This document shows positions 1,212-55,135 of a stretch of 64,000 nt of DNA, piece after piece. The stretch comes from an uncultured Candidatus Saccharibacteria bacterium (GTDB lineage: Bacteria > Patescibacteriota > Saccharimonadia > Saccharimonadales > UBA4665): the NCBI GenBank assembly GCA_964497565.1, contig CAZCCP010000006.1, positions 1,449 through 65,448 on the forward strand, written 5' to 3'. A program made the position numbers and the translations under genes. The notes under the pieces were generated by a model. The model was given only the letters and a program-made list of their open reading frames with translations, was not told the DNA's origin and made no database searches. The first letter of the stretch is position 1. Every line of letters begins with the position of its first letter.

Positions 1212-1320
1212 AACAAATGACTCGGGCTTGATTTAAAAAAGTAAAACCCCGGCCCAGACGAGTCATAGCTATTGTACCAAATTGCTTAGCTAGATTACCA
1301 CTTTACTCGTGGCTATGATG

Positions 1321-1349
1321 TTGTAATATGTGTATTTTAATTATATAAT
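1321..1349 (+). promoter_or_regulatory. Sigma70-type promoter for the first high-GC membrane-protein unit
   Basis: TTGTAA (1321-1326), a 17-nt spacer, then TATAAT (1344-1349). It sits in an AT-rich stretch immediately before GC-rich DNA. Confidence 0.5.
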
Positions 1350-1435
1350 ATGCTAGTTCTCCACTCCGTGGACCTCAGAACATTCACATTGCAGAGTGGA
1401 AGTGCTTTGGCACTACCCCTCAGGAAGGAATTCCG

Positions 1436-2032
1436 ATGACCGTCATGCCGCCGCCCGCATGGGCGATGGTTGCCGCCGCGCTTGTGATGCTCTTCAGCAT
1501 CGCGTCAGCAACGGTAATGCGCAGCCAGCACAGCACGGACGCCAGCTATTCCCGCCTCTACAGCTTCGTGCTGTCAGGCTTCGGCGGGCTGAACCTCGGT
1601 CTCCTGCTGGCGATGCAACTGGCCTACAAGCCGGGCTTCACCTACGCCGCGGAGCACCCGAAGATCATCTTCGGCTACATCGTCGGCGAGTGGGTCGTGA
1701 TCATCTGCGCCCTATGCAACTCGTTCAGGAACTACGGCGTGTTCACGCTGAAGCCCATCTCGATGGAGCTGTTCCTGAACGGCATGGCGTGCTGCTACCT
1801 GTTCGCACTCGCGTGCAACCAGCTGGCCGCGATCGCAAGCAGCCCCAACGGCGGCCACGAGGCCCTGAAACTGGGAGCGTTCGTCTTCGGGATGACCAGC
1901 GTCGCCGCGATCATGACCCTCGCCAGCTACCTGTCCACCTGGACCGAAAGCCGTTTCAACTCGCCCGCCCCCGCGGACGGCAAGACGGCTCAGTCCAACA
2001 CGGCCAAGCCCAACACGAGCAAGGAGCTCTAA
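1436..2032 (+). CDS. High-GC 5-TM membrane protein (cassette protein A), unknown family
   Basis: ORF track, 198 aa. RBS AGGAAGGA lies 6-7 nt upstream of the ATG. Codon third positions are strongly G/C (ACC GTC ATG CCG CCG CCC ...). Five hydrophobic segments. Overlapping ORFs in other frames look like high-GC shadows. Confidence 0.8.
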   Translation: MTVMPPPAWAMVAAALVMLFSIASATVMRSQHSTDASYSRLYSFVLSGFGGLNLGLLLAMQLAYKPGFTYAAEHPKIIFGYIVGEWVVIICALCNSFRNYGVFTLKPISMELFLNGMACCYLFALACNQLAAIASSPNGGHEALKLGAFVFGMTSVAAIMTLASYLSTWTESRFNSPAPADGKTAQSNTAKPNTSKEL

Positions 2033-2545
2033 ATGCACCTCGACCTCCAGAAGGCCAACGTGGCAGCGCTGCTGACACTCATGCTCATCGGCATCATCCA
2101 CTACGTCATCCTGACGCGGCGGATCGGAAGCAACAAGGTCGACAACGGCTACGGCGTCCGCCTGTTCCTGGTACTCATCAGCCTGGCACTCCTGGACGCC
2201 AACGGCTGGACGATCACCAAGTGGCTGTTCGCCCTGTTCAGCGCGTGCTACTGCGTGGCAACCTTCGGTAAGTTCGTCCGGACTTTCGCCGAGAAGTACA
2301 CACTGGATGCCGCGTTCGAACTGTCGACGACCTTCCTGCTGTTCACCACAGCAACGCTGCTCCTGCAGGTCGCTGTGCACGGCAAGTCCACCGGCTTCAT
2401 CCACGGCATCAACGTCGTCCTGCTGGTGATCGACGCGGCCACGCTCGTGATGGCCCTCATGGTCACCGCCCTGAGCGTCCGTCGCTACACCACCATGTCG
2501 GACATCTACGTGCCCACCCCGGCGGGTAAGCCCCCCATGTTCTAG
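2033..2545 (+). CDS. High-GC 5-TM membrane protein (cassette protein B), translationally coupled to A
   Basis: ORF track, 170 aa. The ATG directly abuts the TAA stop of A (TAAATG). The RBS AAGGAG is embedded in the last codons of A (K-E-L). GC-rich third positions; five hydrophobic segments. Confidence 0.8.
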   Translation: MHLDLQKANVAALLTLMLIGIIHYVILTRRIGSNKVDNGYGVRLFLVLISLALLDANGWTITKWLFALFSACYCVATFGKFVRTFAEKYTLDAAFELSTTFLLFTTATLLLQVAVHGKSTGFIHGINVVLLVIDAATLVMALMVTALSVRRYTTMSDIYVPTPAGKPPMF

Positions 2546-2568
2546 CCCTCGCGGCTGCCTCTACGTAC

Positions 2569-2622
2569 GGTGGGCGCGGGGGGGGGGGGGACTCGGGCTC
2601 ACCCCCCCCCCGCCGCACCACC
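2569..2622 (+). repeat. Inverted homopolymer hairpin: GGTGGGCGC-G13, loop, C10-GCCGCACCACC
   Basis: G run at 2578-2590 (13 nt) and C run at 2602-2611 (10 nt), separated by ACTCGGGCTCA. Flanking bases are also partly complementary. Confidence 0.7.
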
Positions 2623-2653
2623 AAACCACTCTGCAATATCAATCACGTATACG

Positions 2654-2680
2654 CCCCACCTGAGAAAGTGGGGATTTTTA
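2654..2680 (+). terminator. Intrinsic terminator of the A-B unit
   Basis: CCCCAC (2654-2659), loop CTGAGAAA, GTGGGG (2668-2673), followed by ATTTTTA. Confidence 0.6.
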
Positions 2681-2691
2681 GTTCTCACCCC

Positions 2692-2727
2692 TGATAAATA
2701 TTGTGTAAATGTGTATAATATTATAAA
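2692..2727 (+). promoter_or_regulatory. Promoter region for the second membrane-protein unit (exact hexamers ambiguous)
   Basis: TGATAA, 16 nt, then TGTATAAT (TATAAT at 2714-2719). A second TATAAA lies at 2722-2727. AT-rich block between two GC-rich blocks. Confidence 0.35.
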
Positions 2728-2811
2728 ATATGCGCGTATCTTTGCGGCCTTCGCAGAGCGTACCTCGACAACAGAGTGGTTCTCACAAGGAAACCACAGG
2801 AATGAGCAGCA

Positions 2812-3354
2812 ATGCCGCTCACCACAATCGTCGCAGCCAGTGTGCTGGGACTCTTTGCCCTGCTGATCGGCCTGTTCGGCAACAGCTTGGACGAAGACGA
2901 GAACGACTTCTACCGCGGCATCATGTTCGCAGTGGCAGCCGGTGCTGGTTGGATTGTCTTCTGTCTGAGCCACCCGGCTGGGCACATGGAAGATCTCCGC
3001 TACATTGGCGACCACACGGCGCTGGCAATATTCTTCGTTCTCATCGCCAAGGCGGTCTTCGACATCCTCTTCGAGGGTATGAAGGCTCAGCTACGCGATG
3101 TACTCGAAGTTGTCGGCATCTGTGCCCTCATCGGCTCCGTCGGTATGAAAGCCAGAGAAGTAGCCGCTCACGGGGCTCAGCCCAACCTTCACGCAGCCAA
3201 CATCTGGCTCATGATCGCCGGCTACCTGTGCCTCCTGGCGCTCATCATCGGCAGTGTCCTCAAGGGGAGCTGGCGTACGACGACCGCTGAGAGTGACACC
3301 AAAATCCCGAACGGACCACGGCACCGCGCACCCCGCGGACGCAAACACCCCTGA
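2812..3354 (+). CDS. High-GC 5-TM membrane protein (cassette protein C)
   Basis: ORF track, 180 aa. GC-rich third positions. Five hydrophobic segments and a basic C-terminal tail (PRHRAPRGRKHP). Confidence 0.8.
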   Translation: MPLTTIVAASVLGLFALLIGLFGNSLDEDENDFYRGIMFAVAAGAGWIVFCLSHPAGHMEDLRYIGDHTALAIFFVLIAKAVFDILFEGMKAQLRDVLEVVGICALIGSVGMKAREVAAHGAQPNLHAANIWLMIAGYLCLLALIIGSVLKGSWRTTTAESDTKIPNGPRHRAPRGRKHP

Positions 3355-3378
3355 CGTACCGAAAGGACGCGATTCCCA

Positions 3379-3972
3379 ATGACCGCTCTCGCCGTCGCCA
3401 TCGCGCTGTTTCTGACCATCGCCACACCCCAGTTCGTGATGCGCAACCGCGCACGCGACAACAGCAGCATGCCGTACATCGTCGTCGCAGCCGTCTTCAC
3501 CGCAAACGCCCTCTTCGCCACCATCTACCTGAGCATGCCTGGCATGTTCACGGGGCGACTGAGCAGCATCGGAGATGGGATCCTGATGACTGGCATCGCG
3601 TACGCAGCAGCCAAGGCTCTGGCGACCAAGACGGCAGCCCTCACTGACAAGCTGGAGATCTCCCTGGTCATCAGCGGCGCCATCGCGACCGCATCCAGGG
3701 CGTACAGCCTGCACTACACGGGCGCGAACAACCACTTCAATCTGTGGTACTGCGTCTCGGGCGCGACCTTCATCGTGCTGACGACCATCCTCCTGGTGGC
3801 CATCAAGCGCGACAACGACAAGCTCGAAGCCACACTGGCCCAGGCCCGTCGTGACCAAGCGTCCCGCCACCAAGCTCCCATGGAGGAGTGCACCACCGAC
3901 CCGGACCACTGGCTCAAGTATCACGCCCCCAACCCCGGTCCCATCGACCCGCGGTACAAGAAGGAGCTCTGA
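3379..3972 (+). CDS. High-GC 5-TM membrane protein (cassette protein D)
   Basis: ORF track, 197 aa. RBS-like GAAAGGA upstream. Ends in AAGGAGCTCTGA (..KKEL*), almost identical to the 3' end of A (AAGGAGCTCTAA). Confidence 0.8.
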   Translation: MTALAVAIALFLTIATPQFVMRNRARDNSSMPYIVVAAVFTANALFATIYLSMPGMFTGRLSSIGDGILMTGIAYAAAKALATKTAALTDKLEISLVISGAIATASRAYSLHYTGANNHFNLWYCVSGATFIVLTTILLVAIKRDNDKLEATLAQARRDQASRHQAPMEECTTDPDHWLKYHAPNPGPIDPRYKKEL

Positions 3973-4005
3973 ACCAACCGGCCGTCTGGCCTACCTGGAG
4001 TAGAA

Positions 4006-4059
4006 CGCGCGTTCGCGCGGCGGATCCTGGCATCAGCCATCCGTCCGCGCGAACTGCGC
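4006..4059 (+). other. Long GC-rich stem-loop downstream of protein D
   Basis: CGCGCGTTCGCGCGG (4006-4020) pairs with CCGCGCGAACTGCGC (4045-4059) with one bulge. The loop is about 24 nt. Confidence 0.6.
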
Positions 4060-4109
4060 CGCTCCTCTTCAAAAAACCACTCTGTTGTCCTCAAACCCTC
4101 GTCTTATTC

Positions 4110-4141
4110 AAAAGAGCCCCCTGCGTTGGGGGCTCTTTTTA
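4110..4141. terminator. Bidirectional intrinsic terminator shared by the C-D unit (+) and the helicase gene (-)
   Basis: AAAAGAGCCCCC, loop TGCGTT, GGGGGCTCTTTTT. A-run on one side and T-run on the other. It overlaps the helicase stop codon. Confidence 0.7.
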
Positions 4142-18536: not shown

Positions 18537-19550
18537 ATGGCTGATCGGGAATCGATAATCAACCCCTTTGAACAAGAGGGGATACTCAACACATTTGACG
18601 AGATACAAGCTGAGTCATTCTTTGCTACGCCAGAACTGCGAAGCGCTTTTTTACGCGACCTTACGTTCGAAGACTATACGAATTTCCTAACACTTATCAA
18701 TGAATCGTTTCAATTTGACGTAAGCGAGGTGCTTGACCCTACGAACACTAGTCAACATATGATCATAAGAAGCGATACAAACCAGGAGACGGGCAAGGTC
18801 CAAGATAAATGGCCGATATACATTGCACCAGGCCATGAACACAGGCCCTTACTACTTAATGAAGCGTTCACCGTCGCACAAGAGTTAGAAGATGTCGAAC
18901 AGGCAGCTACGCTATTGGGGCTATCGCTAAGTATGGTTCATCCTTTTAATGATGGTAACGGCCGTACAAGTAGAATTTTGTATAGCCTACTGACGCATGG
19001 CTATGATGGATCAAGTGCAGATAGACAATATTTTACTGAGCTCAGTAGTCACGAAGGAAGAGAGATAGTCTACTTTTCCCAAGAAGCTGCTAATCTACCT
19101 GGTTTGTTCGTAGGACGCGAGCTACGAACAAAGCAACTTTACGATGAGCCAAAGCAGTTGATCGATTTGCAACCACGAAAAGGCGACAGTTGGAAGTGGA
19201 GAACACGAGAGTTCCTGCTTGGTAAAACAGGCGTTGACCTCATGCTTCAAGAAGGCTACTTTGGCTTACCACTACTCATGGAAAAAGTGAAAGAAGACGG
19301 CCGTCGGCTTCAAGACTGCAGCGCTGTCACAATAAGCGTATCAGGGCAAACAATACAAAGGCTTGACATAGGAGAAGTCTACGCACGACCCAAAGACATA
19401 GACCAGCGTGCAACCACAGCCAGACATACACAACTCAAGCTTGAATATATACGCACTGTCATTGATTGTTTTCGGCCAGAAACACCAGACCCACTAATCA
19501 GTTCCGACGAAATCACTCGTGTATACGCTTCGCCCACAAAGAATGCTTAG
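18537..19550 (+). CDS. Fic/DOC-family protein (putative AMPylase)
   Basis: Canonical Fic motif HPFNDGNGRTSR, matching HxFx(D/E)GNGRxxR. Confidence 0.85.
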   Translation: MADRESIINPFEQEGILNTFDEIQAESFFATPELRSAFLRDLTFEDYTNFLTLINESFQFDVSEVLDPTNTSQHMIIRSDTNQETGKVQDKWPIYIAPGHEHRPLLLNEAFTVAQELEDVEQAATLLGLSLSMVHPFNDGNGRTSRILYSLLTHGYDGSSADRQYFTELSSHEGREIVYFSQEAANLPGLFVGRELRTKQLYDEPKQLIDLQPRKGDSWKWRTREFLLGKTGVDLMLQEGYFGLPLLMEKVKEDGRRLQDCSAVTISVSGQTIQRLDIGEVYARPKDIDQRATTARHTQLKLEYIRTVIDCFRPETPDPLISSDEITRVYASPTKNA

Positions 19551-19803
19551 TACAGGACTGCAGCGTAGTCGATTCTTTTATAAACAAGAAAAAAGCCCCA
19601 AGCGTACGCTTGAGACTCTTTTCTTGGTGAACCTACCCGCCCAGTTTTGGAAGACCTTTTGGCCTAGTCTGGAATTATTGCATGACAACTTAATCATGTT
19701 GGGTGTGTCCGACCACGAACTAATGCTGGAGGGTGGCGCTAATGTTGGCGTGGCTTCGGCTCGTGCATATAGAGAAGGAATCTAGTAGCAGACGGATTCA
19801 ACC

Positions 19804-21105
19804 CTATTTCTTAAGAGACACATTGAGTAGGGCTTTGGCGGTGGCATCTAATAGAAGCTCGAACTTGTTGTAGTCAGCCTTTGTGTCAACTAATGGATGA
19901 AAAAGCACCATAGCGATTTCGCGTTTTTCGTTGTCATAATATTTAATCTCCATTGCATCCCTTGTGAGAATCTCATGGTCTTCGTGCATTCGGACTATAA
20001 ATCGTCCCATCTCTTTTTGTGACTCGACGTATTCGTCGCCAATCAGTATGCGAAACGCGTCCCATTTTTGCATGGCATCAACTTTAGCATTTACTTCAGT
20101 ATCGCTTAGCTTAGCCTTTTTCTCTCTAATGACATTTGTATAACTAGCTTCTGACTCGTGCGCGACATAATTACGCTTTCGTTTTATCCACTTTATCCAC
20201 TTATTCATTGTTAATTCTGAATATAGAGCATAAAGATCATCATTCTTTGTTTTTAACTGCTCCAAGAACTTTTCATGTTCTATGTTAGGACGAACGTCCT
20301 TCCCACTTATACTAAAGAGCTCAGTGAGTAATCTTCCAATGATGTCGAATGAGCCAGAAAATAAGAAGTAGAGGTTGCTAAGATGGTAATTAAGCTCAAA
20401 TGAATAATCGTAAAAACTATCATAACCATAGGAGTCTTTAATCTTGTAGTTACGCTCAGCGTAATGCTTTCTTTGAACTAGAGACAGTATGGTTTCTTCA
20501 CAATACCTTATTTGTATGGCTTTATGTTGCAGGGCTCGGACGAAACTCATGTGCGTATTCGTGTAACCTAGTTCTCTAGGTGCTACGTTATTCAGATTCC
20601 GAAGGTTATCTAGAAGCGGTTTAGTTTCGATATATTTCGAGAACCAAGTCGCGTTCCATACTGGCTGGTTAAAATCCCATGGTACATTCTTTCCTGTTAC
20701 GTATGCTTCTATCTCGTTTTCAAGCTGTGCCGTAGTTTCAGCGTACTGGAACGGTTTACCAGTTTTGTAGAGATCGGCTATAAGTTTTAGATCATCGCTA
20801 TAAATAAGGTCAATATTATTCGAGTGAGCATAACTCAGTATTGGATCTACACCCTTATTGAGATCGTCAAATACGCTGTATCTATACTTTTCTTGGTTAG
20901 AAGCAAGACTTTCAGTGTTCGCAACTCTTATCTCGATTTCAAAATCAGCACCTATGTCGCTAACATAGTGCTTTAATATCTCTAGTTTTTGCATTAAAGA
21001 GTACAAGTAGCTCTCATTAGTATCCAGCAGCATTACTCTAAAAATAGCATTAGGTGCAGGATGTATGTTTAACTCTGGGAAGGTCGTACCATTTATTGTT
21101 GGCAT
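19804..21105 (-). CDS. Hypothetical 433-aa protein with a candidate HEPN Rx4H motif
   Basis: ORF track 19804..21108, which starts at a GTG. The ATG at 21105 follows the RBS GAGGAG. C-terminal region KRKRNYVAHESEAS contains R-x4-H. AT-rich codon usage. Confidence 0.75.
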   Translation of the reverse strand: MPTINGTTFPELNIHPAPNAIFRVMLLDTNESYLYSLMQKLEILKHYVSDIGADFEIEIRVANTESLASNQEKYRYSVFDDLNKGVDPILSYAHSNNIDLIYSDDLKLIADLYKTGKPFQYAETTAQLENEIEAYVTGKNVPWDFNQPVWNATWFSKYIETKPLLDNLRNLNNVAPRELGYTNTHMSFVRALQHKAIQIRYCEETILSLVQRKHYAERNYKIKDSYGYDSFYDYSFELNYHLSNLYFLFSGSFDIIGRLLTELFSISGKDVRPNIEHEKFLEQLKTKNDDLYALYSELTMNKWIKWIKRKRNYVAHESEASYTNVIREKKAKLSDTEVNAKVDAMQKWDAFRILIGDEYVESQKEMGRFIVRMHEDHEILTRDAMEIKYYDNEKREIAMVLFHPLVDTKADYNKFELLLDATAKALLNVSLKK

Positions 21106-21356
21106 CACAACTCCTCTAGATTGGTATTATCGTTTGAATTCTTCGAAGCTCTCACGAGCTGTTTTGAAGATCAACTTCACAATGTTGTAGTGGGGGTCGT
21201 TCTTATCTTCATCGTGCAGATCTGTTATTTTTGATCGCATTCGCTGCGAGAGTTCTTATATGTATATTACATCTCAAAACGCTGCTGCTTGCAATTTCAA
21301 CTCCTCTTAGGCATGCTTAAGAAAAGTAACGTGGTGGGCATGTGAGGGGGTAGCAC

Positions 21357-21977
21357 GTGGCCAAAGAAAACGAACAGCTCGATACGCTTCTTAAAATTAA
21401 AGAGTTGCTAAAGCCTTTGGAAAATAAAGAACTGCTTAGCGCAAATGAAAAAGAAGTTTCTGAAATTGCGCTAGAAGAAAATAAAAAAGAACTAATCCAG
21501 CTTTCGCTAGTAGAATTACGGCGTGTATACGATGGCGTACTCAGTTCACTGGATGCCTTACGCACTAAAGCTCTTGCGCTTCTTGCTGCTGAGGTTGCGA
21601 TTGTTGCATTTCTTTTCGCACCTACAGGAAGATCAGACACGGCATTCTTTGCATATGACACACCTGTTTATGGCGTTGTACTCTTTGGCCTAGGCCTATC
21701 GCTATTGTTCTCCTCGTTTGTACTTTTCTTAATTTCCATATCCTCAGTCAATGTTACCCACCCCCCTGACGAAAAAGATATTGTCGACATTTATGGACGT
21801 TTCCAAAATAGCCCTCTAAAATTTTTAGAGTATCTGAAATCAGAATATATGCGTGCTCTTTCGCAGTGTATCTCTAGAGTTAACCATCGCTCAAAAAGAT
21901 TTACGTGGGGAGTGTACTCGTTTGCTATTGGCATAGCCCTACTTATCTTGGTAAAATATTGTAGCAACGTAATATGA
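21357..21977 (+). CDS. Hypothetical protein: N-terminal coiled-coil-like region plus 3 TM segments
   Basis: ORF track, 206 aa. GTG start preceded by GAGGGGG. TM segments ALALLAAEVAIVAFLFA, VVLFGLGLSLLFSSFVLFLISI and VYSFAIGIALLILV. Confidence 0.7.
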   Translation: MAKENEQLDTLLKIKELLKPLENKELLSANEKEVSEIALEENKKELIQLSLVELRRVYDGVLSSLDALRTKALALLAAEVAIVAFLFAPTGRSDTAFFAYDTPVYGVVLFGLGLSLLFSSFVLFLISISSVNVTHPPDEKDIVDIYGRFQNSPLKFLEYLKSEYMRALSQCISRVNHRSKRFTWGVYSFAIGIALLILVKYCSNVI

Positions 21978-49505: not shown

Positions 49506-49529
49506 GATTGTAAATCTAAATATTTGAGG

Positions 49530-49559
49530 TTGTCAAGTATTTGCTACATGACGTATAAT
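49530..49559 (+). promoter_or_regulatory. Promoter predicting a near-leaderless marR transcript
   Basis: TTGTCA (49530-49535), 18 nt, TATAAT (49554-49559). The ATG at 49569 begins 10 nt after the end of the -10 element. Confidence 0.45.
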
Positions 49560-49568
49560 AACTATGTT

Positions 49569-50060
49569 ATGCAAGATAAGTACGAAGACCTCAACACGTT
49601 TTGGCTAACTTTCGAGCTCATGCTGCGGATGAAACCGCGATTTATTGAGTCGGCTGTTAAGCGCGGTCTTACGACGCAGCAATTGCACGTGCTTGGGTTT
49701 TTGAGTGATAACCGCCCTCACCCTATGAGCTGGATGGCTGCACTCTTGTCTTGCGATGCCTCCAACGTTACTGGTATCGTTGACCGATTGGTCGCCATGG
49801 ACCTCGTTGAGCGCGTCGAGAACGAAAAAGATCGTCGCGTTAAAATGATTCAGCTCACCAAACACGGAGAAAAGATGCGCGCCGAAGTTATGGCTGAGCT
49901 GACACACGACAGCCAGGAGCGTATCGATAGCATGCTTACACGTGAGGAACAAAAAGTCTTCCGTGACATTGTCATCAAGCTACTCAAAACGACCGAAGCA
50001 GAAGCGCTTGAGGCCTGCCCTGTCGCCAAGATCTACGAAAAAATCAAAAGCCGCTCCTAG
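49569..50060 (+). CDS. MarR-family transcriptional regulator
   Basis: LTTQQLHVLGFL...VTGIVDRLVAMDLVERVENEKDRRVKMIQLT. The track ORF starts at a TTG at 49524. I prefer 49569. Confidence 0.85.
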   Translation: MQDKYEDLNTFWLTFELMLRMKPRFIESAVKRGLTTQQLHVLGFLSDNRPHPMSWMAALLSCDASNVTGIVDRLVAMDLVERVENEKDRRVKMIQLTKHGEKMRAEVMAELTHDSQERIDSMLTREEQKVFRDIVIKLLKTTEAEALEACPVAKIYEKIKSRS

Positions 50061-50075
50061 ATAAGAGCGGCTTTT
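50046..50075. terminator. Bidirectional terminator
   Basis: AAAAGCCGCTC, loop CTAGATAA, GAGCGGCTTTT. It overlaps the marR stop codon. Confidence 0.7.
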
Positions 50076-50181
50076 CTGGTAGCAAAGTAGGTGGGCTCTT
50101 GAGTGTATGCGTAAAAATGCCAGTGGCATCACATACACCCGAGAGCCGGACGGCTACCTCCTTAATTGAGAGCGGTTTGGA

Positions 50182-51099
50182 CTATCGGCGAGGCCGACGT
50201 ATCGGGAAGCGCTGCGCGAGATGCAGATCGTTGTCGTGTGATCCGCCAGGTGTGCGGTGCGATTGGTCGAGAACGACCTTCAGCTCGCCGCTGAGCTGCG
50301 GGTGAATGCCGAGGGTGTACATGAAGTGCACCACATCGACCTCCAGTCCCTTGAGCAACTCCAGCGGATCCAGTTCGAAGAGCGTTGAGCTCTCGTAGGT
50401 TGCCGTGACCGCCTGAGCGCGTACAGAACGCACGTCCAGGAAGTACGCCAGCCCGCAGGTAGCCTCAAGGCTGGGAACAAAAGACCGCTGCTGCTTGGTG
50501 ATGCGGACGGTGACCGTCGCCGTACACATGCGTCCCAGCCTGCTGTCATACGGAATACGTACGATGGCATGGCCGGTAGCCTCGTAGATCGGCTTGATCG
50601 CGCTGGAAAGCACGAGGCGTGCTGCCTCCGAGTTGCAGAGCGTCAGACAGTTGTTCTCGATGCAGAGCTGCCAGTCGCCCGCCAGGCCCGGATCTTGCTG
50701 GATCCAGCCGTCGACCAGCTCATTGAGCCGTTGTACGGTGAACGCCTGCTCGGGCCGCAGTACCACGATGTCGTCGTTCATGCTGTTGGTGTCGATGAAG
50801 AGTACGTCTGGCACACTCTTGTCGAACTCCGCCTGAAGCACGCGCAGCGGGATCTCCAGGTTGTACAGAGCCTCCTGGTCAATCGGATGCTCGTCGTCAT
50901 TCGGAAGTACGAAACACAGCCCAGACCTTCGGTCCCAGCTGACGCTCGCGCTGCCCTCCACGATGAGCACCTGCAGTGCCTGCAGCGTTGCGTTGATGCT
51001 GGCTGCCGTAAACGGCACCTCAGCAGGAACGCCAAGGACCAGTCTGTGCTGATCCCGGTTCGGCTGCTCAAGCAGTCCCTCTCCCCTGACGGTTGCCAT
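50182..51099 (-). CDS. High-GC paralog P1 (305 aa), unknown family
   Basis: RBS GAGAGGA upstream. GC-rich third positions (CTG/GAG/ATC/GAC codons). Shares VPFTAASINATLQAL, GLCF and C-terminal LGIHP..ELKVVLD with P2-P4. Confidence 0.8.
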   Translation of the reverse strand: MATVRGEGLLEQPNRDQHRLVLGVPAEVPFTAASINATLQALQVLIVEGSASVSWDRRSGLCFVLPNDDEHPIDQEALYNLEIPLRVLQAEFDKSVPDVLFIDTNSMNDDIVVLRPEQAFTVQRLNELVDGWIQQDPGLAGDWQLCIENNCLTLCNSEAARLVLSSAIKPIYEATGHAIVRIPYDSRLGRMCTATVTVRITKQQRSFVPSLEATCGLAYFLDVRSVRAQAVTATYESSTLFELDPLELLKGLEVDVVHFMYTLGIHPQLSGELKVVLDQSHRTPGGSHDNDLHLAQRFPIRRPRR

Positions 51100-51150
51100 G
51101 GGAATGTCCTCTCAATTGGTCCACGATGTGGAACGGTAGCTGACAAATAT

Positions 51151-51179
51151 ATTATACAATCAAAAAATAATAATCACAA
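51151..51179 (-). promoter_or_regulatory. Promoter of P1
   Basis: On the minus strand: TTGTGA, 17 nt, TATAAT (as TGTATAAT). The surrounding 40 nt are about 15% GC by hand count. Confidence 0.55.
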
Positions 51180-51190
51180 AGGTGTGCTTC

Positions 51191-51247
51191 GGCTGGGTGG
51201 TGTTCGGTAAAGATGGTCGCTATGCAACCGATGAACACCACCCAACC
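51191..51247 (-). other. Long-stem, large-loop hairpin downstream of P2
   Basis: 15-nt arms, GGCTGGGTGGTGTTC and GAACACCACCCAACC on the plus strand, with one G-U position in the minus-strand RNA. 27-nt loop. Confidence 0.6.
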
Positions 51248-51257
51248 CTGGCAACTA

Positions 51258-52169
51258 CTACGACCTGGCGCTTACGGCTCCAGGGAGAAAACTCAACGCT
51301 CGCTGGCTGTCGATGTTGACTCGGAACTCTGTGACATCTGGGTGGTATCCCAGTGCCCGAGCGAAAGCCAGCGACTGCTGCCAGACGATGTTGTCAGTGA
51401 CCAAGTCGGTCATCAGCCCGGTGTACGTAGTGCCCTGAGGCAAACCGATGAGCCGGGCGCGGGCAACTCCTTCAGCAGTCTGTTCGACGCCAACGATGTT
51501 GGGCACGAGTCGTGCTGCATCGAGGTCGAATGACAGGTCGATCCGATAGCCGGGCGTGCCGGTGACCGTGATCCAGATGCGCTCGATGAAGCCCTGGTCG
51601 AGCTCACATGTCACGTCGAGTTTGCAGTGCTTGTAGCGGGGACTGAAGCTGTACCGGAAGTCGCTCATAGACGAGCTGTCGCCGTCTCGCAAGGCGAGGT
51701 AGGGACGTGACATGTCGAACGACAGGTACTTGCTGCTGTGGCCCAGCTGCTCGAAGAGCGACTTAAAGCTCGCTGTTGTCACCGGCTGATCTGGTTCAAG
51801 GATCGCCAAGCACTCATCTCTGCCATATGGCTCACGGGCCGTCAGGAACAGGATGTCCTGCGTTGCTTCCGGCTTGTCATCGACTGCGAAGTCGAAGTCA
51901 AAGGCCTTGAGCTGGCGTCGAACGTCCTGCTCCTCGCGGAAGTAGTGACTGATCCGGAAGTGCAGAGCTGTACCGCCCACAACCGCGAGCTCAGACTTGG
52001 TGAGCACGCTGTCGATAGACGAGTCGCCAGCAAGGTGCTGCCGCAGTCGTTGGAGATCCCGGTACAGTGTACGGGTCGTAAAGACCTCCCTGGGGTCGAT
52101 GTAGATGTAGAAGTGCGAGTGATCGTCGAAAGATGGCATCGACAATACGGGCCGGCGCTTTGGGCGCAT
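51258..52169 (-). CDS. High-GC paralog P2 (303 aa), unknown family
   Basis: The track ORF starts at a TTG (52217) inside the promoter. The ATG at 52169 (MRPKRRP) follows the RBS GAGGGAAG. C-terminal ALGYHPDVTEFRVNID. Confidence 0.8.
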   Translation of the reverse strand: MRPKRRPVLSMPSFDDHSHFYIYIDPREVFTTRTLYRDLQRLRQHLAGDSSIDSVLTKSELAVVGGTALHFRISHYFREEQDVRRQLKAFDFDFAVDDKPEATQDILFLTAREPYGRDECLAILEPDQPVTTASFKSLFEQLGHSSKYLSFDMSRPYLALRDGDSSSMSDFRYSFSPRYKHCKLDVTCELDQGFIERIWITVTGTPGYRIDLSFDLDAARLVPNIVGVEQTAEGVARARLIGLPQGTTYTGLMTDLVTDNIVWQQSLAFARALGYHPDVTEFRVNIDSQRALSFLPGAVSARS

Positions 52170-52205
52170 TCTCTTCCCTCTCGTCGTGTAGTTGACGTGG
52201 GATAT

Positions 52206-52234
52206 ATTATGCAACAAATAAATAATAATTACAA
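52206..52234 (-). promoter_or_regulatory. Promoter of P2
   Basis: On the minus strand: TTGTAA, 17 nt, CATAAT (as TGCATAAT). It is nearly identical to the P1 promoter block over about 45 nt. Confidence 0.55.
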
Positions 52235-52248
52235 AGGTGGTGCTGGCT

Positions 52249-52301
52249 CTTGGGGTACGTTATCTTTGCGATGGAAGTCCATCAGACAAACATACCCCAA
52301 G
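52249..52301 (-). other. Long-stem, large-loop hairpin downstream of P3
   Basis: CTTGGGGTA (52249-52257) pairs with TACCCCAAG (52293-52301). 35-nt loop. Confidence 0.5.
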
Positions 52302-52328
52302 GGCCGTGTCAGCAGCCGAGCACATTGC

Positions 52329-53189
52329 TCAGCTTCGATCGCTCATCGGCGGTGGCTTGTAGAGCAGCTCATGGCTGTCATCGATCCTGATACGGAACTC
52401 CAGGTCACGCGGGTGGTAGCCCAGAGCTTTGGCGAACTTGACCGTGAACTTCCACACCTTAGCGGCGTTGACGAAGTCGGCCATGAAGCCCGGATAGGTC
52501 AGGAGCCAGGGTTGGCCCGCCAGACGTGCGGTGACGGCACTATGCTCCTCCACGACGTCCGCAGCGAAGTTGAGCGCTTTTGCGGCGTCCAGGTTGTAGC
52601 CAATCTGGCCCTCAGCGGCCCGAGTACCCTCGACATGCATGATGATGCGGTCGATGTAGTGGTTGCGGACAGTTGCCACGGCGTAGACGCGAGCCTGCTT
52701 GTAGCGAGGCTTGAGCACCCGGACTGCGTTCTCACCCAGGCGGTCGTGCCAGACCTGACAGACCCAGAGGTACGGCGCATCCGCCTTGATGTACCAGTCC
52801 TCGCCTTGGTCGTTGAGGCCAGCCAGGTAGGTGTTGATCGTCGTTACGCTCAGCGGCTGCTCGGGGTCGATTGCACCGCCACACTGGCCGGCAACGAAGA
52901 GAATCTCCGGAACTTCCGGCACGGCGTCCACTGCATACGTGAACTTGTATGCCATCAGTCGCTCGCGAAGCTCGTCGAGCTCGTCCGGGTTGCCGCCGAA
53001 GCGGAAACACAGACCCTTGTCGGAGCTGGTCTTCAATGCAACCCTGTTGAACTCGAACTCAGCGCGAAGCTTCTCCAGCTGAGCGATCACGCTATTCGGC
53101 GTGAACACCTCGTCCCGGTGCATGTGTACGAGCACCTCTCGGTGGCTGGTACTCACTTCGACAGCAGGCTGTCGGCTTTCAAAGTGCAT
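52329..53189 (-). CDS. High-GC paralog P3 (286 aa), unknown family
   Basis: RBS GGGAGAGG upstream. GC-rich third positions across the whole ORF, checked codon by codon. Contains GLCFRFGGNPDEL and ALGYHPRDLEFRIRID. Confidence 0.8.
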   Translation of the reverse strand: MHFESRQPAVEVSTSHREVLVHMHRDEVFTPNSVIAQLEKLRAEFEFNRVALKTSSDKGLCFRFGGNPDELDELRERLMAYKFTYAVDAVPEVPEILFVAGQCGGAIDPEQPLSVTTINTYLAGLNDQGEDWYIKADAPYLWVCQVWHDRLGENAVRVLKPRYKQARVYAVATVRNHYIDRIIMHVEGTRAAEGQIGYNLDAAKALNFAADVVEEHSAVTARLAGQPWLLTYPGFMADFVNAAKVWKFTVKFAKALGYHPRDLEFRIRIDDSHELLYKPPPMSDRS

Positions 53190-53234
53190 GAACCTCTCCC
53201 TACTCGTTCGTGCGAAGTATAGCTGACAAGACTA

Positions 53235-53263
53235 ATAATATAATGTTCTTCATACATTGGCAA
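53235..53263 (-). promoter_or_regulatory. Promoter of P3
   Basis: On the minus strand: TTGCCA, 17 nt, TATTAT, followed by the TTGTCAGCTA 5'UTR element shared with P1. Confidence 0.45.
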
Positions 53264-53324
53264 CGTAGCTACTCTATCGAAATGACACGAGTATCATCTT
53301 TAAGAACAGCTAGGTTGTGTGTTC

Positions 53325-53380
53325 GGGTCTCCTGGGGTTGTATGTTGATACCATACTGGCATCGCAACCCCGGGAGACCC
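53325..53380 (-). other. Long-stem, large-loop hairpin downstream of P4
   Basis: GGGTCTCCTGGGGTTG (53325-53340) pairs with CAACCCCGGGAGACCC (53365-53380), 15 of 16 positions. 24-nt loop. Confidence 0.6.
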
Positions 53381-53406
53381 TCGCAACTACATGTCATTCA
53401 CCTCTT

Positions 53407-54372
53407 TCAGGCGCGGTCGGACAGGATGTCGAAGTGGTGACTCAGTTCGATGGTCTGGAGGGCGCTGCCGTAATCCAGCGTGATGCTGTACTTCGGCATG
53501 CCGACCACCGGGAAGATGTTCAGGGCCTTGGCCAGTTCGACGCTGAGGGCGTGGACTGCGAAGATGAACTTCCTCGGATCACCGAAGGTGAACAGCTCCG
53601 AACCGGCGGTTTCGACGTGAACCTGGTTGAACTGGTCAACCTCGACGTTTACGACGCCAGCGACGAGCTTCACGCGGCTGAGGTCGAACTCGTGCGGCTC
53701 GATCGGCGAAATGACGCGGATCATGTGGTGGACGGAGGCCAGTTGGTCTTCCTCGTTGTACCCGCAGGAGGCCGTGATGATGCCACAGTACGGGTACTTC
53801 GCGACCACACGGAGTGCCATGGCGCTGTAGTCGATGGCGGTGTCGCGCAGGTCCTCCTGGTCGTCCTCGTCCAGATCGTCGTCGTAGCCGCAGTCCTCGT
53901 CGTCGAGATGCTCCAGCAGGAACGCTCCCCAGCCGACTGATGCCGTCCAGTCTTCCCGCCGTTTAGCGAGCTTTCCGGTGAAGCGGTCGATCAAGTCGAT
54001 GAACATGGCACCGGTGAGCACCTGTAGCGGCTCGATAACGAGCTGCGGGTACTTACTGGTGCAGTCCAGTGACAGGACTTCGAGAGCTTCGCTCGTGACT
54101 TTGCCATCAGCCCTGAGGGACGTCTTGATGTTGGCGGCTCGCTCGAGAACTTCTGGCGACGTTTCGTAGCCGAACCGTACGATCAGCCCGTTGTTCTCAC
54201 CCGAATAACGGATGGACACGTCGTCCAGTTCCTCGTCGGTGAGCTCTTCGATTGTGGCGGTGACGCTGGCGGCCGTAAACGGCATGTCCAGCGGCATCAG
54301 GAATGCCGGGCAGCTTTCGTCGGTGACAAGCTTGCCGCCGAGATCTGCGATTGAGTACACTTCTTCTCCCAT
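53407..54372 (-). CDS. High-GC paralog P4 (321 aa), unknown family, with an acidic insert
   Basis: MPFTAASVTATIEEL, GLIVRF and C-terminal AKALNIFP are homologous to P1-P3. Asp/Glu-rich insert DDEDCGYDDDLDEDDQED. Confidence 0.8.
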   Translation of the reverse strand: MGEEVYSIADLGGKLVTDESCPAFLMPLDMPFTAASVTATIEELTDEELDDVSIRYSGENNGLIVRFGYETSPEVLERAANIKTSLRADGKVTSEALEVLSLDCTSKYPQLVIEPLQVLTGAMFIDLIDRFTGKLAKRREDWTASVGWGAFLLEHLDDEDCGYDDDLDEDDQEDLRDTAIDYSAMALRVVAKYPYCGIITASCGYNEEDQLASVHHMIRVISPIEPHEFDLSRVKLVAGVVNVEVDQFNQVHVETAGSELFTFGDPRKFIFAVHALSVELAKALNIFPVVGMPKYSITLDYGSALQTIELSHHFDILSDRA

Positions 54373-54409
54373 CGTCGTCCACTGAGGTGAAATGGTAGTT
54401 GACGTGCAT

Positions 54410-54438
54410 ATTATACAATATTCTACTGCAATTAAAAA
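54410..54438 (-). promoter_or_regulatory. Promoter of P4 (clear -10, weak -35)
   Basis: On the minus strand: TGTATAAT, followed by ATGCACGTCAACTAC, which is shared with the P2 5'UTR. Confidence 0.35.
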
Positions 54439-54481
54439 TGATCGTTTGCTTGCCCACCCAAAAAGCAGGTATTATAGGGGC

Positions 54482-55135
54482 ATGACTACTGAACCAGAGA
54501 TTTCCCAAACCACAAAAACAGCATCCCGGCTTACGAGTAAGTTAGCGTTTCTGCTCTACGGCTTACTGCTAGGCGTTGTTGTTATTCTGGGCATCCGCTT
54601 CTTTACCTACAATCCGGCACATACGCACTACCACGCCAACTTCCAGGTTTACATCAATGGCAAACGCGAACTGTTCAAAGACTCAACCTATTACGAAGAC
54701 GTGGCCGCCTGCTCTGCCTACGACAACATTACGCCAGCCGAGCGCGCACATATGCATGATGAAGTTAACGACGTCATACACGTCCACGACCACGCCGTCA
54801 CATGGGGTCAGTTCTTCGAAAATATCGGCTGGTTTGTTGGTGATGATTTCGTAAAAACCAAAGATGGCACGCTGTACGTAGCCAACGGCAACGAAAAACT
54901 ACACATTATGTTAAACGGCCAAGATTACACAGACCTGACGCCTATCACCGATATGACTATTGGTGACCAGGACAAGCTACTCATAAGTTTTGGCGACCTT
55001 TCCGATTCGACTATCAAAACTGAGTACAACGGCATCAAAAATAATGCCAAGAAGAGCGATGAGACCAAAGATCCCGCCTCGTGTAGTGGCGATATCAAGC
55101 CTTCGACGACCGACCGCTTGAAGCATTTATTCTAG
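54482..55135 (+). CDS. Hypothetical single-TM protein with a His-rich extracytoplasmic domain
   Basis: ATG at 54482 (MTTEPEIS). TM LAFLLYGLLLGVVVILGI. HTHYHANF and HMHDEVNDVIHVHDH suggest metal binding. Confidence 0.7.
   Translation: MTTEPEISQTTKTASRLTSKLAFLLYGLLLGVVVILGIRFFTYNPAHTHYHANFQVYINGKRELFKDSTYYEDVAACSAYDNITPAERAHMHDEVNDVIHVHDHAVTWGQFFENIGWFVGDDFVKTKDGTLYVANGNEKLHIMLNGQDYTDLTPITDMTIGDQDKLLISFGDLSDSTIKTEYNGIKNNAKKSDETKDPASCSGDIKPSTTDRLKHLF

Follow-up and report, generated by a model that had tools for sequence, protein, structure and literature searches.

Orphan genes in bracketed, A/T-purged units at a conserved locus of Candidatus Saccharibacteria: candidate closed-loop mRNA modules

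An orphan gene family at a fixed locus

The DNA analysed here, referred to as the window, is a stretch of 64,000 nucleotides (nt) from an uncultured Candidatus Saccharibacteria bacterium (contig CAZCCP010000006.1 of NCBI GenBank assembly GCA_964497565.1); positions are counted from its first nucleotide. Four open reading frames (ORFs), G1 to G4, lie in tandem on its minus strand and are ordered G4, G3, G2, G1 in the direction of transcription (Table 1). They were found where an initial annotation, made by a model from the letters of the sequence, had placed them. That annotation described the genes as homologous paralogues with few residues in common, and both statements hold. Added to it here are a 3' hairpin for each gene, complementarity between each leader and its own 3' untranslated region (UTR), a conserved synteny, and a second island at 1.3-4.1 kb in the window. 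Pairwise identity among the four paralogues is 19-27%. G2 and G3 match each other across their full length (27.5% identity, E 4e-34), and G1 matches G3 at E 3e-6 and G4 at E 4e-4 (database of four sequences). Profiles built without a gene's own subfamily recover G4 (1.6e-31), G1 (9.8e-44), G3 (3.4e-21), and G2 (1.2e-17), and among the 796 six-frame ORFs of the window G1 to G4 match nothing but one another. G4 is a family member with an acidic insertion (DDEDCGYDDDLDEDDQED). The ATG that gives G2 its 303 amino acids (aa) is the same start as in the public protein collection, where the four genes, like their neighbours, each form a singleton cluster.

The family, which the initial annotation did not recognise, lies outside those searched here. 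Pfam holds no match to the family proteins at E<=1, and PHROGs, NCBIfam, and PADLOC give noise only (top score E 0.003 at 15 bits). The PDB gives no match either; in a PDB sequence profile search, a short 'THR1' match (E 5e-4) and KH-domain matches (E about 0.3) were judged not credible. Searched exhaustively with an HMMER profile, 1.84 billion representatives yielded 26 matches, of which 25 are genuine; the 26th is a TPR repeat protein and was dismissed as spurious. The 25 representatives are full length (274-325 aa) and divide into G1-like, G2/G3-like, and G4-like proteins and several single-copy types. When 5.8 billion proteins were searched with a word index, the G3 query found itself as the sole match, and the 25-sequence alignment found 6 proteins among the 8000 candidates scored. 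No family relative was found in viral contigs and phage genomes (tblastn) or in two metagenome pattern scans.

The AlphaFold2 model of G3, made with the 25-sequence alignment, has a predicted local distance difference test score (pLDDT) of 91.9 and a predicted template modelling (TM) score (pTM) of 0.88. It shows two successive beta-beta-alpha-beta-beta-alpha modules and a bigger C-terminal sheet-and-helix module. Foldseek searches with this model gave nothing at E<=1e-3 or TM>0.5 in PDB or BFVD: the best PDB fold match has E 0.011 and TM 0.11-0.14, and the best BFVD match has E 0.026; the matches, antibody Fabs at TM 0.1 and small alpha/beta domains with a target TM score (TMt) below 0.5, are noise. 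The family protein is read as an orphan cytoplasmic protein of about 300 aa, with a confidently predicted three-module alpha/beta fold that has no detectable known relative. An internal duplication of the N-terminal module had also been proposed, and this idea is weakly backed; the beta-beta-alpha-beta-beta-alpha order does occur twice in the model, but profile-profile comparison, which places PxDxPFTAxS of module 1 in register with EPxQxLTA of module 2 (E 1.3e-3), gives a probability of only 18%.

In the alignment of the 25 representatives, only one Pro and one Tyr are conserved in at least 90% of the sequences, which argues against a conserved catalytic centre. Since evolution is fast and no polar residue is invariant, the likeliest role of the protein is that of a binding or structural factor, without enzymatic activity, at a conflict or host interface. 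The extreme C-terminus reads xSDR(S/A/R) in G2, G3, G4, and most other members, is Arg-rich (RFPIRRPRR) in the G1 type, including the relatives P0009 and P0019, and reads GRYPFPN in the P0029 subgroup. This conserved end could act as a tag for recognition or export.

Recovery of relative loci yielded 13 distinct ones (designated by L numbers, with lower-case letters for individual genes), and 10/13 have flanks long enough to judge; no neighbours can be seen on the short contigs of L012, L014, L015, and L017, which were excluded from the synteny count. All 10 judgeable loci occupy one syntenic site, in which one to four family copies lie between Ku, LigD, and a membrane-protein gene on one side and MarR and MFS genes on the other. 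The family genes lie beside MarR in L002, L003, L004, L006, L007, L010, and L013 and beside the membrane-protein gene in L016; the window is arranged likewise. One flank consists of Ku, LigD, and a divergent gene for a small membrane protein (about 220 aa), and the other of convergent MarR and an MFS transporter, to which the longer loci add a beta-helix protein and an MMPL protein. The flanking proteins of the relative loci are 66-91% identical to their counterparts in the window. No integrase, tRNA, or direct repeat is present at the array borders, the tRNAs being 17 and 28 kb off. The synteny and the restriction of the family indicate that the locus, with its one to four anciently separated paralogues, is vertically inherited and lineage specific in a clade of Candidatus Saccharibacteria; synteny and identity place the window organism in the same clade as the relatives.

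The family genes evolve faster than the genes around them. Between the window and L004, flanking proteins are 67-91% identical and family orthologues 36-50%; between L004 and L003 the corresponding values are 85-94% and 64-65%. For the latter pair, the nonsynonymous substitution rate (dN) is 0.03-0.10 in the flanks and 0.23-0.25 in the family, or 2-8 times that of the neighbours, and its ratio to the synonymous rate (dN/dS) is 0.03-0.07 in the flanks and about 0.24 in the family. The single-copy genes of L007 and L010 are 24-29% identical to any copy in the window, and their flanks are 66-88% identical. The leader, the 3' box, and the 3' hairpin described below are kept across these genomes, so that the picture of fast protein divergence next to conserved regulatory DNA drawn by the initial annotation is borne out. 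The diversifying selection it read from this picture is not, as dN/dS over whole genes stays below 1 (0.24-0.5) and dS is close to saturation; diversifying selection on the family is possible.

Composition and bracketing of the units

The contrast in base composition to which the initial annotation drew attention is real. Coding GC content of the four genes is 0.59-0.61 and GC content at third codon positions (GC3) is 0.74-0.81, compared with 0.34-0.68, mostly about 0.5, in other genes of the window. The contrast recurs in every locus examined: GC3 is 0.66-0.90 in 19/19 family genes and 0.40-0.60 in their neighbours. High GC3 everywhere, despite protein identities of 15-40% that lie past synonymous saturation, indicates a maintained, gene-specific equilibrium. 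The underlying codon bias is strong in the A/T-rich codon families, with ATC used for Ile at 0.88 (background 0.40), TTC for Phe at 0.86 (0.50), AAC for Asn at 0.90 (0.63), and AAG for Lys at 0.86 (0.55). Ala GCN codons are unbiased in the family, and Arg CGC is below background.

Runs of four A/T (W4) are rare in the family genes: these have 0-21 per kb, and other window genes 38-70. Relative to shuffles that preserve each gene's protein sequence and its own codon usage, the observed/expected ratio in the 19 family genes is 0.56 for W4 (z -7.7) and 0.70 for three-nucleotide runs (W3; z -10.6); in 13 control genes it is 0.94 for W4 and 0.96 for W3. The depletion of runs beyond codon usage, together with the specificity for particular codon families, means that selection against A/T-rich oligomers causes the high GC3. 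Neither pressure towards GC from mutation or gene conversion, nor ordinary translational selection, nor the composition of a donor predicts such a pattern. The high GC content looks like a selected design feature, probably one of the mRNA, rather than a sign of foreign origin.

Each unit begins with its own promoter. The initial annotation had assigned a TTGnnn-17-TG(T/C)ATAAT promoter to all four genes. A TTGnnn-17-(T/C)AT(A/T)AT promoter is present upstream of G1, G2, and G3, but G4 has an extended -10 element (TGTATAAT) and no TTG hexamer at 17 nt; the P4 motif and its position recur upstream of the G4 orthologues in L004, L003, and L015. The close similarity seen earlier between the P1 and P2 blocks amounts to 87% over 38 nt, and the P1 and P4 blocks share 78% over 36 nt. 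The P1/P2 similarity suggests that, within the window genome, only the promoter module was recently copied or converted. Two alternating leader types are present, as had been described: TGTCAGCTA in G1 and G3 and CGTCAACTAC in G2 and G4. The likeness of P1 and P2 ends at the -10 element or start site, where the two leader types begin. In the orthologous spacer upstream of L004_c, the promoter sequence differs from P1 and P2.

A short box (box A, consensus GTCA(A/G)CTAC(C)) lies 2-7 nt past the -10 element, and a 3' box complementary to it (box A') lies behind the stop codon of the same gene. A 3' box complementary to the unit's own box A is found in 19/19 units, over 6-11 nt, and its distance past the stop codon is usually 8-27 nt (0-38 nt across the 19 units). 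The complementarity is gene specific. Summed over the units, the duplex energy between the 12-nt box A and the 3' UTR of the same unit is -179.9 kcal/mol, compared with -145.2 +/- 8.4 for permuted partners, among which the observed energy was reached in 4 of 100,000 permutations, and with -113.5 +/- 7.7 for shuffled 3' UTRs. The two boxes also covary: the 5' box is GTCAATCACC and the 3' box GGTGATTGGC in L007, GTCAACTATTG and CAATAGTTGAT in L016, GTCAGTA and TACTGGC in L004_b, and GTCAGC and GCTGAC in G3 of the window (W_G3).

G1 carries a second pair of boxes (B and B'), in which box B' is complementary to the Shine-Dalgarno region; an analogous pairing is found in L004_c, L013, and L014. When leader and 3' UTR are cofolded, the minimum free energy structure holds the A:A' helix in 13/16 units. 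A second helix, between the start-proximal leader (often the Shine-Dalgarno sequence) and the first nucleotides after the stop codon, appears in about 10/16 units, and in G1 this second helix is that of AATTGAGAG with CTCTCAATT.

Hairpins accompany the boxes at both ends. In the leaders of G1, L003_a, L004_a, and L014, a small hairpin has the form TCCAC-N3-4-GTGGA. At the 3' end, each of the four genes of the window is followed by a nested hairpin that is more stable than expected (Table 1). Compensatory double changes affect 4/27 predicted pairs of the G3-type hairpin (3 genomes), and compensatory changes affect 4/24 predicted pairs of the G1-type hairpin (2 genomes, compared with L004_c). 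An alignment (MAFFT) of nine 3' UTRs of mixed type gave no consensus structure, the sequences being too diverged; the alignments of subtypes are the informative ones. Rfam at gathering thresholds gave no match. Below threshold (scan at E<=1), the Pseudomonas rnk leader (RF01772) matched positions 50038-50148 on the minus strand with 33.7 bits, compared with a threshold of 55, and E 0.005. This match, which covers the 3' hairpin of G1 and the terminator, most likely reflects a generic resemblance among hairpin-terminator sequences.

The same design occurs once more in the window. A second island on the plus strand (1300-4140) consists of two two-gene operons that encode small four-helix membrane proteins, which are orphans and unrelated to the G1-G4 family. 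Its genes have GC3 of 0.73-0.91 and 0-9 W4 per kb. Its TATAAT promoters are AT-rich, a TCCACTCCGTGGA leader hairpin lies at 1360-1372, and among its long G/C hairpins is a G13/C10 stem at 2569-2622. Inverted repeats connect the leaders with the 3' UTRs: 1382-1399 with 2626-2643 (18 nt, 89%) and 2767-2781 with 4075-4089 (15 nt, 100%). The second island is an independent replicate of the bracketed, A/T-purged design.

Table 1. Coordinates of the gene array, its promoters, boxes, and hairpins, and the genes of the second island (W4, runs of four A/T per kb; SD, Shine-Dalgarno)
Feature	Position	Strand	Remarks
P4 extended -10 element of the G4 unit (TGTATAAT)	54410..54417	-	no canonical -35 at 17 nt
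Box A of G4 (GTCAACTACC)	54394..54403	-	6 nt past -10; predicted transcript 5' end; complementary to box A' of G4
G4	53407..54372	-	321 aa; GC3 0.81; W4 8.3
Box A' of G4 (GTAGTTG)	53384..53390	-	17 nt past stop; complementary to box A
3' nested hairpin of G4	53325..53380	-	outer stem about 16 bp and inner hairpin; -40.7 kcal/mol, z -3.8
P3 promoter, TTGCCA-17-TATTAT	53235..53263	-	consensus scan
Box A of G3 (TGTCAGCTATA)	53218..53228	-	
G3	52329..53189	-	286 aa; GC3 0.77; W4 2.3; copy used for modelling
Box A' of G3 (GCTGACA)	52307..52313	-	16 nt past stop; covaries with box A in L004_b and L003_b
3' nested hairpin of G3	52245..52305	-	z -6.3
P2 promoter block, TTGTAA-17-CATAAT	52202..52239	-	consensus scan and repeat search
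Box A of G2 (GTCAACTAC)	52188..52196	-	
G2	51258..52169	-	303 aa; GC3 0.74; nearest paralogue G3
Box A' of G2 (GTAGTTG)	51252..51258	-	overlaps stop codon
3' nested hairpin of G2	51191..51247	-	-37.2 kcal/mol, z -6.75
P1 promoter block, TTGTGA-17-TATAAT	51147..51184	-	consensus scan and repeat search
Box A of G1 (GTCAGCTACC)	51135..51144	-	
5' leader hairpin of G1 (TCCACATCGTGGA)	51120..51132	-	same motif in leaders of L003_a, L004_a, and L014 and at 1360-1372 of the window
Box B of G1 (AATTGAGAG)	51109..51117	-	includes SD purines; complementary to box B'
G1	50182..51099	-	305 aa; GC3 0.76; W4 3.3; C-terminus Arg-rich
Box B' of G1 (CTCTCAATT)	50164..50172	-	10 nt past stop (starts 11 nt downstream)
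Box A' of G1 (GGTAGCCG)	50151..50158	-	
3' nested hairpin of G1	50094..50147	-	z -7.1
Canonical bidirectional terminator	50046..50075		common to G1 and the convergent MarR gene (49524-50060, +)
Second island, first operon	1436-2032, 2033-2545	+	orphan; unrelated to the G1-G4 family
Second island, second operon	2812-3354, 3379-3972	+	orphan; unrelated to the G1-G4 family

Proposed closed-loop mRNAs and other explanations

The explanation favoured here, with slightly more doubt than belief, is that the units encode closed-loop, nuclease-resistant mRNAs at a vertically inherited locus of orphan genes. Each copy would be an autonomous monocistronic module. It would start with a block of about 15% GC that holds a near-consensus or extended -10 promoter, and its transcript is predicted to begin at box A, followed by the small 5' hairpin, the Shine-Dalgarno sequence, and the A/T-purged ORF. 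The module would end with box A' and a nested hairpin with an outer stem of 15-20 bp. Boxes A and A' would pair in the mRNA and sequester its 5' end, and in several copies also the Shine-Dalgarno region, against the 3' UTR. The pairing, the 3' hairpin, and the missing AU-rich cleavage sites may together produce a closed-loop, ribonuclease-resistant, and long-lived message that is possibly gated for translation. The proteins could then be made abundantly, or at times when ordinary AU-rich mRNAs are destroyed.

Pairing of 5' and 3' ends, a strong 3' hairpin, and the absence of AU-rich sites are known determinants of ribonuclease resistance. When the units were compared with mRNAs of the icaR/hbs type, in which the 5' and 3' UTRs pair, both transcript-specific complementarity and its covariation across orthologues and paralogues were found. 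In icaR of Staphylococcus aureus, a motif in the 3' UTR pairs with the Shine-Dalgarno region, represses translation, and makes an RNase III site (PMC3868564). The complementarity of post-stop nucleotides to the Shine-Dalgarno region in G1, L004_c, L013, and L014 is like that of icaR. Unlike icaR, which is a single regulator gene, the units also involve the very 5' end, covary across a family and are joined by a second gene set, and have an A/T-purged ORF. In hbs of Bacillus subtilis, a 14-bp interaction of the 5' UTR with the 3' UTR limits attack by RNase Y and RNase J1 (PMC5737220). The long-range duplex between the UTRs proposed here, which would shield the leader from entry of endonuclease or 5'-exonuclease, resembles that of hbs. 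The hbs transcript, an abundant and stable monocistronic mRNA, has normal composition and encodes a known nucleoid protein, whereas the present units combine a duplex of 6-11 bp with a second helix and have an ORF devoid of AU-rich sites. The units add a computationally well supported instance of covarying 5'/3'-UTR complementarity across a whole gene family in bacteria, replicated in a second, unrelated gene set of the genome; such pairing had been known from isolated mRNAs (icaR, hbs).

Several observations weigh against the closed-loop explanation. The non-Watson-Crick positions of helix A comprise 12 G-U and 8 A-C, and A-rich and T-rich runs are about equally depleted (0.55 and 0.63), and neither comparison tells RNA-level and DNA-level selection apart. 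Helix A is short and is weak in G2, L010, L012_b, and L017, and the start of the transcript at box A is a prediction from promoter geometry only. An ORF of about 900 nt separates the pairing partners, and translating ribosomes would compete with pairing of the Shine-Dalgarno sequence. In the second island, global duplex energies are not above those of shuffles, and the exact inverted repeats alone stand out.

The same boxes might be the inverted repeats of a recombinase, with a coding segment that flips relative to a fixed promoter and a phase-variable family at the surface or the host interface. This explanation is unlikely, even though the repeats do flank the coding region with the promoter outside, those of the second island are 15-18 nt long and nearly perfect, covariation of the arms is equally expected for recombination sites, the G-U and A-C counts do not favour RNA, and fast evolution suits a contingency locus. 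The arms in the family are 6-11 bp with mismatches and differ between units of one genome, unlike the sites of a single invertase; no recombinase adjoins the array in the loci with long flanks or was found among the window ORFs scanned, which were not every ORF; and the A/T purge and the 3' hairpins would be left unexplained. In addition, 21/21 units (19 of the family and both operons of the second island) are in the ON orientation, which is a weak negative because it comes from assemblies only. Selection on DNA composition is a further candidate, and a doubtful one. A/T tracts would be removed to keep off a nucleoid silencer that binds AT, to prevent spurious promoters within or antisense to the genes, or to evade a nuclease or transposon that targets AT, the promoters of the lineage being AT-rich extended -10 promoters, and the complementarity of the UTRs would be incidental or would have a separate role. 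Symmetric depletion of A-rich and T-rich runs, the sharp boundary between AT-rich promoter and GC-rich body, and the dependence of the purge on context, and hence on oligomers rather than individual codons, are in keeping with it. However, these genomes have no known or identified silencer, neighbouring genes tolerate the W4 densities given above for the rest of the window, and the covarying 5'/3' boxes in the same units and in the second island are unaccounted for. Less probable still is that GC3 was raised by recombination (GC-biased gene conversion) or by translational selection in genes of very high expression, with the fast protein evolution as a side effect of frequent recombination or relaxed constraint. 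The tandem array of paralogues with its homogenized P1/P2 block would suit conversion, and the preference for C-ending codons in two-fold pyrimidine families is usual for highly expressed genes; but the unbiased Ala codons and the low use of Arg CGC contradict a uniform drive on GC3, the genes' own codon usage predicts about twice as many A/T runs as are present, which is not so in control genes, glycolytic genes (phosphoglycerate kinase, PGK, and pyruvate kinase) have GC3 of about 0.5, and the coding parts of the paralogues are too diverged for ongoing conversion.

The initial annotation had preferred a recent island from a high-GC actinobacterial host or phage that retained the composition of its donor, with promoters domesticated later. 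Saccharibacteria live on Actinomycetota, the GC3 of the array is far from that of its surroundings, and the codon choice superficially resembles that of Actinomycetota (CTG/CTC, GAC, AAG, no TTA). This origin is nonetheless very improbable: wherever a relative locus can be judged, the array sits at the syntenic position, with orthology at the level of subtypes; the proteins have diverged to the identities given above while GC3 has stayed high everywhere, with no amelioration; there is no homologue beyond the family in 1.84e9 representatives, phages, or viral contigs; the borders lack an integrase, a tRNA, and a direct repeat; and the bias is specific to codon families, with Ala codons unlike those of Actinomycetota. 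Odd composition is thus not the same as foreign origin, which calls for caution where horizontal gene transfer is called from composition in genomes of candidate phyla. Hardly credible at all is that the 494-aa antisense ORF (51738-53222, plus strand) is the real gene, or that the four ORFs are non-coding. The long open frame on the opposite strand is a by-product, because G3 has no TTA, CTA, or TCA codons (and G2 has few) and the frame lies codon for codon opposite the sense frame. It crosses an AT-rich promoter, and comparable antisense ORFs in other loci differ in extent, whereas the sense frames show GC1/GC2/GC3 periodicity, full-length conservation in the 25 representatives, dN/dS below 1, and a fold of high confidence.

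Other known systems share single traits with the array. Integron cassette arrays likewise consist of tandem ORFs in the same orientation, each followed by an imperfect inverted repeat (attC) that folds into a long hairpin. An integron was rejected: every unit has its own promoter, there is no integrase among the neighbours, the position is fixed by synteny with orthologous subtypes, and the hairpins have no consistent RYYYAAC/GTTRRRY cores, only the G2 hairpin having a GTTGGGT-like core, in the wrong orientation. The target of a diversity-generating retroelement was also rejected, as 49900-54700 holds no near-identical direct repeat longer than 38 nt and the neighbours include no reverse transcriptase. 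Genomic islands and xenogeneic DNA share with the array a sharp contrast in composition with flanking genes, but islands are usually AT-rich. Here the contrast is reversed and maintained by selection on A/T runs, and the locus is syntenic and vertically inherited, without mobility genes or a donor lineage. The mycobacterial PE/PPE proteins and the variable proteins of mycoplasmas are fast-evolving, lineage-specific multigene families. Like them, the array consists of tandem paralogues that outpace their neighbours and vary in copy number between related genomes; unlike them, it has no relation to their sequences or folds, no repeats, lipobox, or signal peptide, and occupies one fixed locus with one to four copies.

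An orphan fold encoded in bracketed, A/T-purged modules at a conserved Saccharibacteria locus is outside every family or system tested. To our knowledge, no such gene class has been described, and a search of the literature on GC-rich gene classes in Saccharibacteria found nothing relevant. If the closed-loop explanation is true, the modules represent a reusable mRNA 'armour', in which the 5' end is paired, the body is free of AU, and the 3' end carries a long hairpin, and they would offer a handle on RNA turnover in Saccharibacteria, which as far as we know is essentially unstudied. With its confidently predicted fold, its fixed locus, and a rate of evolution 2-8 times that of its neighbours in an obligate epibiont, the orphan family is also a plausible candidate for the interface with host or phage.

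A bolder form of the closed-loop explanation, which at present is rather far-fetched, is that the modules are designed for action within the high-GC actinobacterial host cell or against it. If so, removal of A/T tracts and TTA codons and the use of host-like codons would allow escape from AT-targeting silencers and RNases of the host and translation in the host, the closed 5' and 3' ends would protect the message in transit, and the proteins would be epibiont-host effectors expressed across cells. A milder form supposes a dedicated class of 'armoured' mRNAs, comprising the family and the island at 1.3-4.1 kb, that would survive AU-specific RNases let loose by the cell, for instance when it scavenges RNA from the host or when toxins are activated.

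Neighbouring genes and short contigs

The small membrane protein encoded beside the array is a His-rich, single-pass protein of about 215-220 aa without a Pfam match, and its gene is always divergent from the first family gene. It is found in the window (54482-55135, plus strand), L004 (7101-7745), L007 (7226-7897), L010 (7176-7832), and L016 (415-1077). This protein may be functionally linked to the family. Its start is probably the ATG at about 54482, because the ORF of 247 aa that was listed from position 54392 overlaps the promoter of G4.

The contigs of L014 (1084 nt), L015 (1062 nt), and L017 (1255 nt) barely exceed one unit, and L015 begins within box A. These contigs could be the result of assembly breaks at repeated promoter and leader blocks or could come from transcript-derived assemblies.

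Elsewhere in the window, an AT-rich patch at 18537-21977 (GC 0.38-0.45) encodes a Fic/DOC protein, a Cthe_2314-like HEPN protein (a predicted RNase), and an unassigned ORF. The patch looks like a toxin or defence islet, and with the HEPN protein the genome carries predicted RNase toxins.

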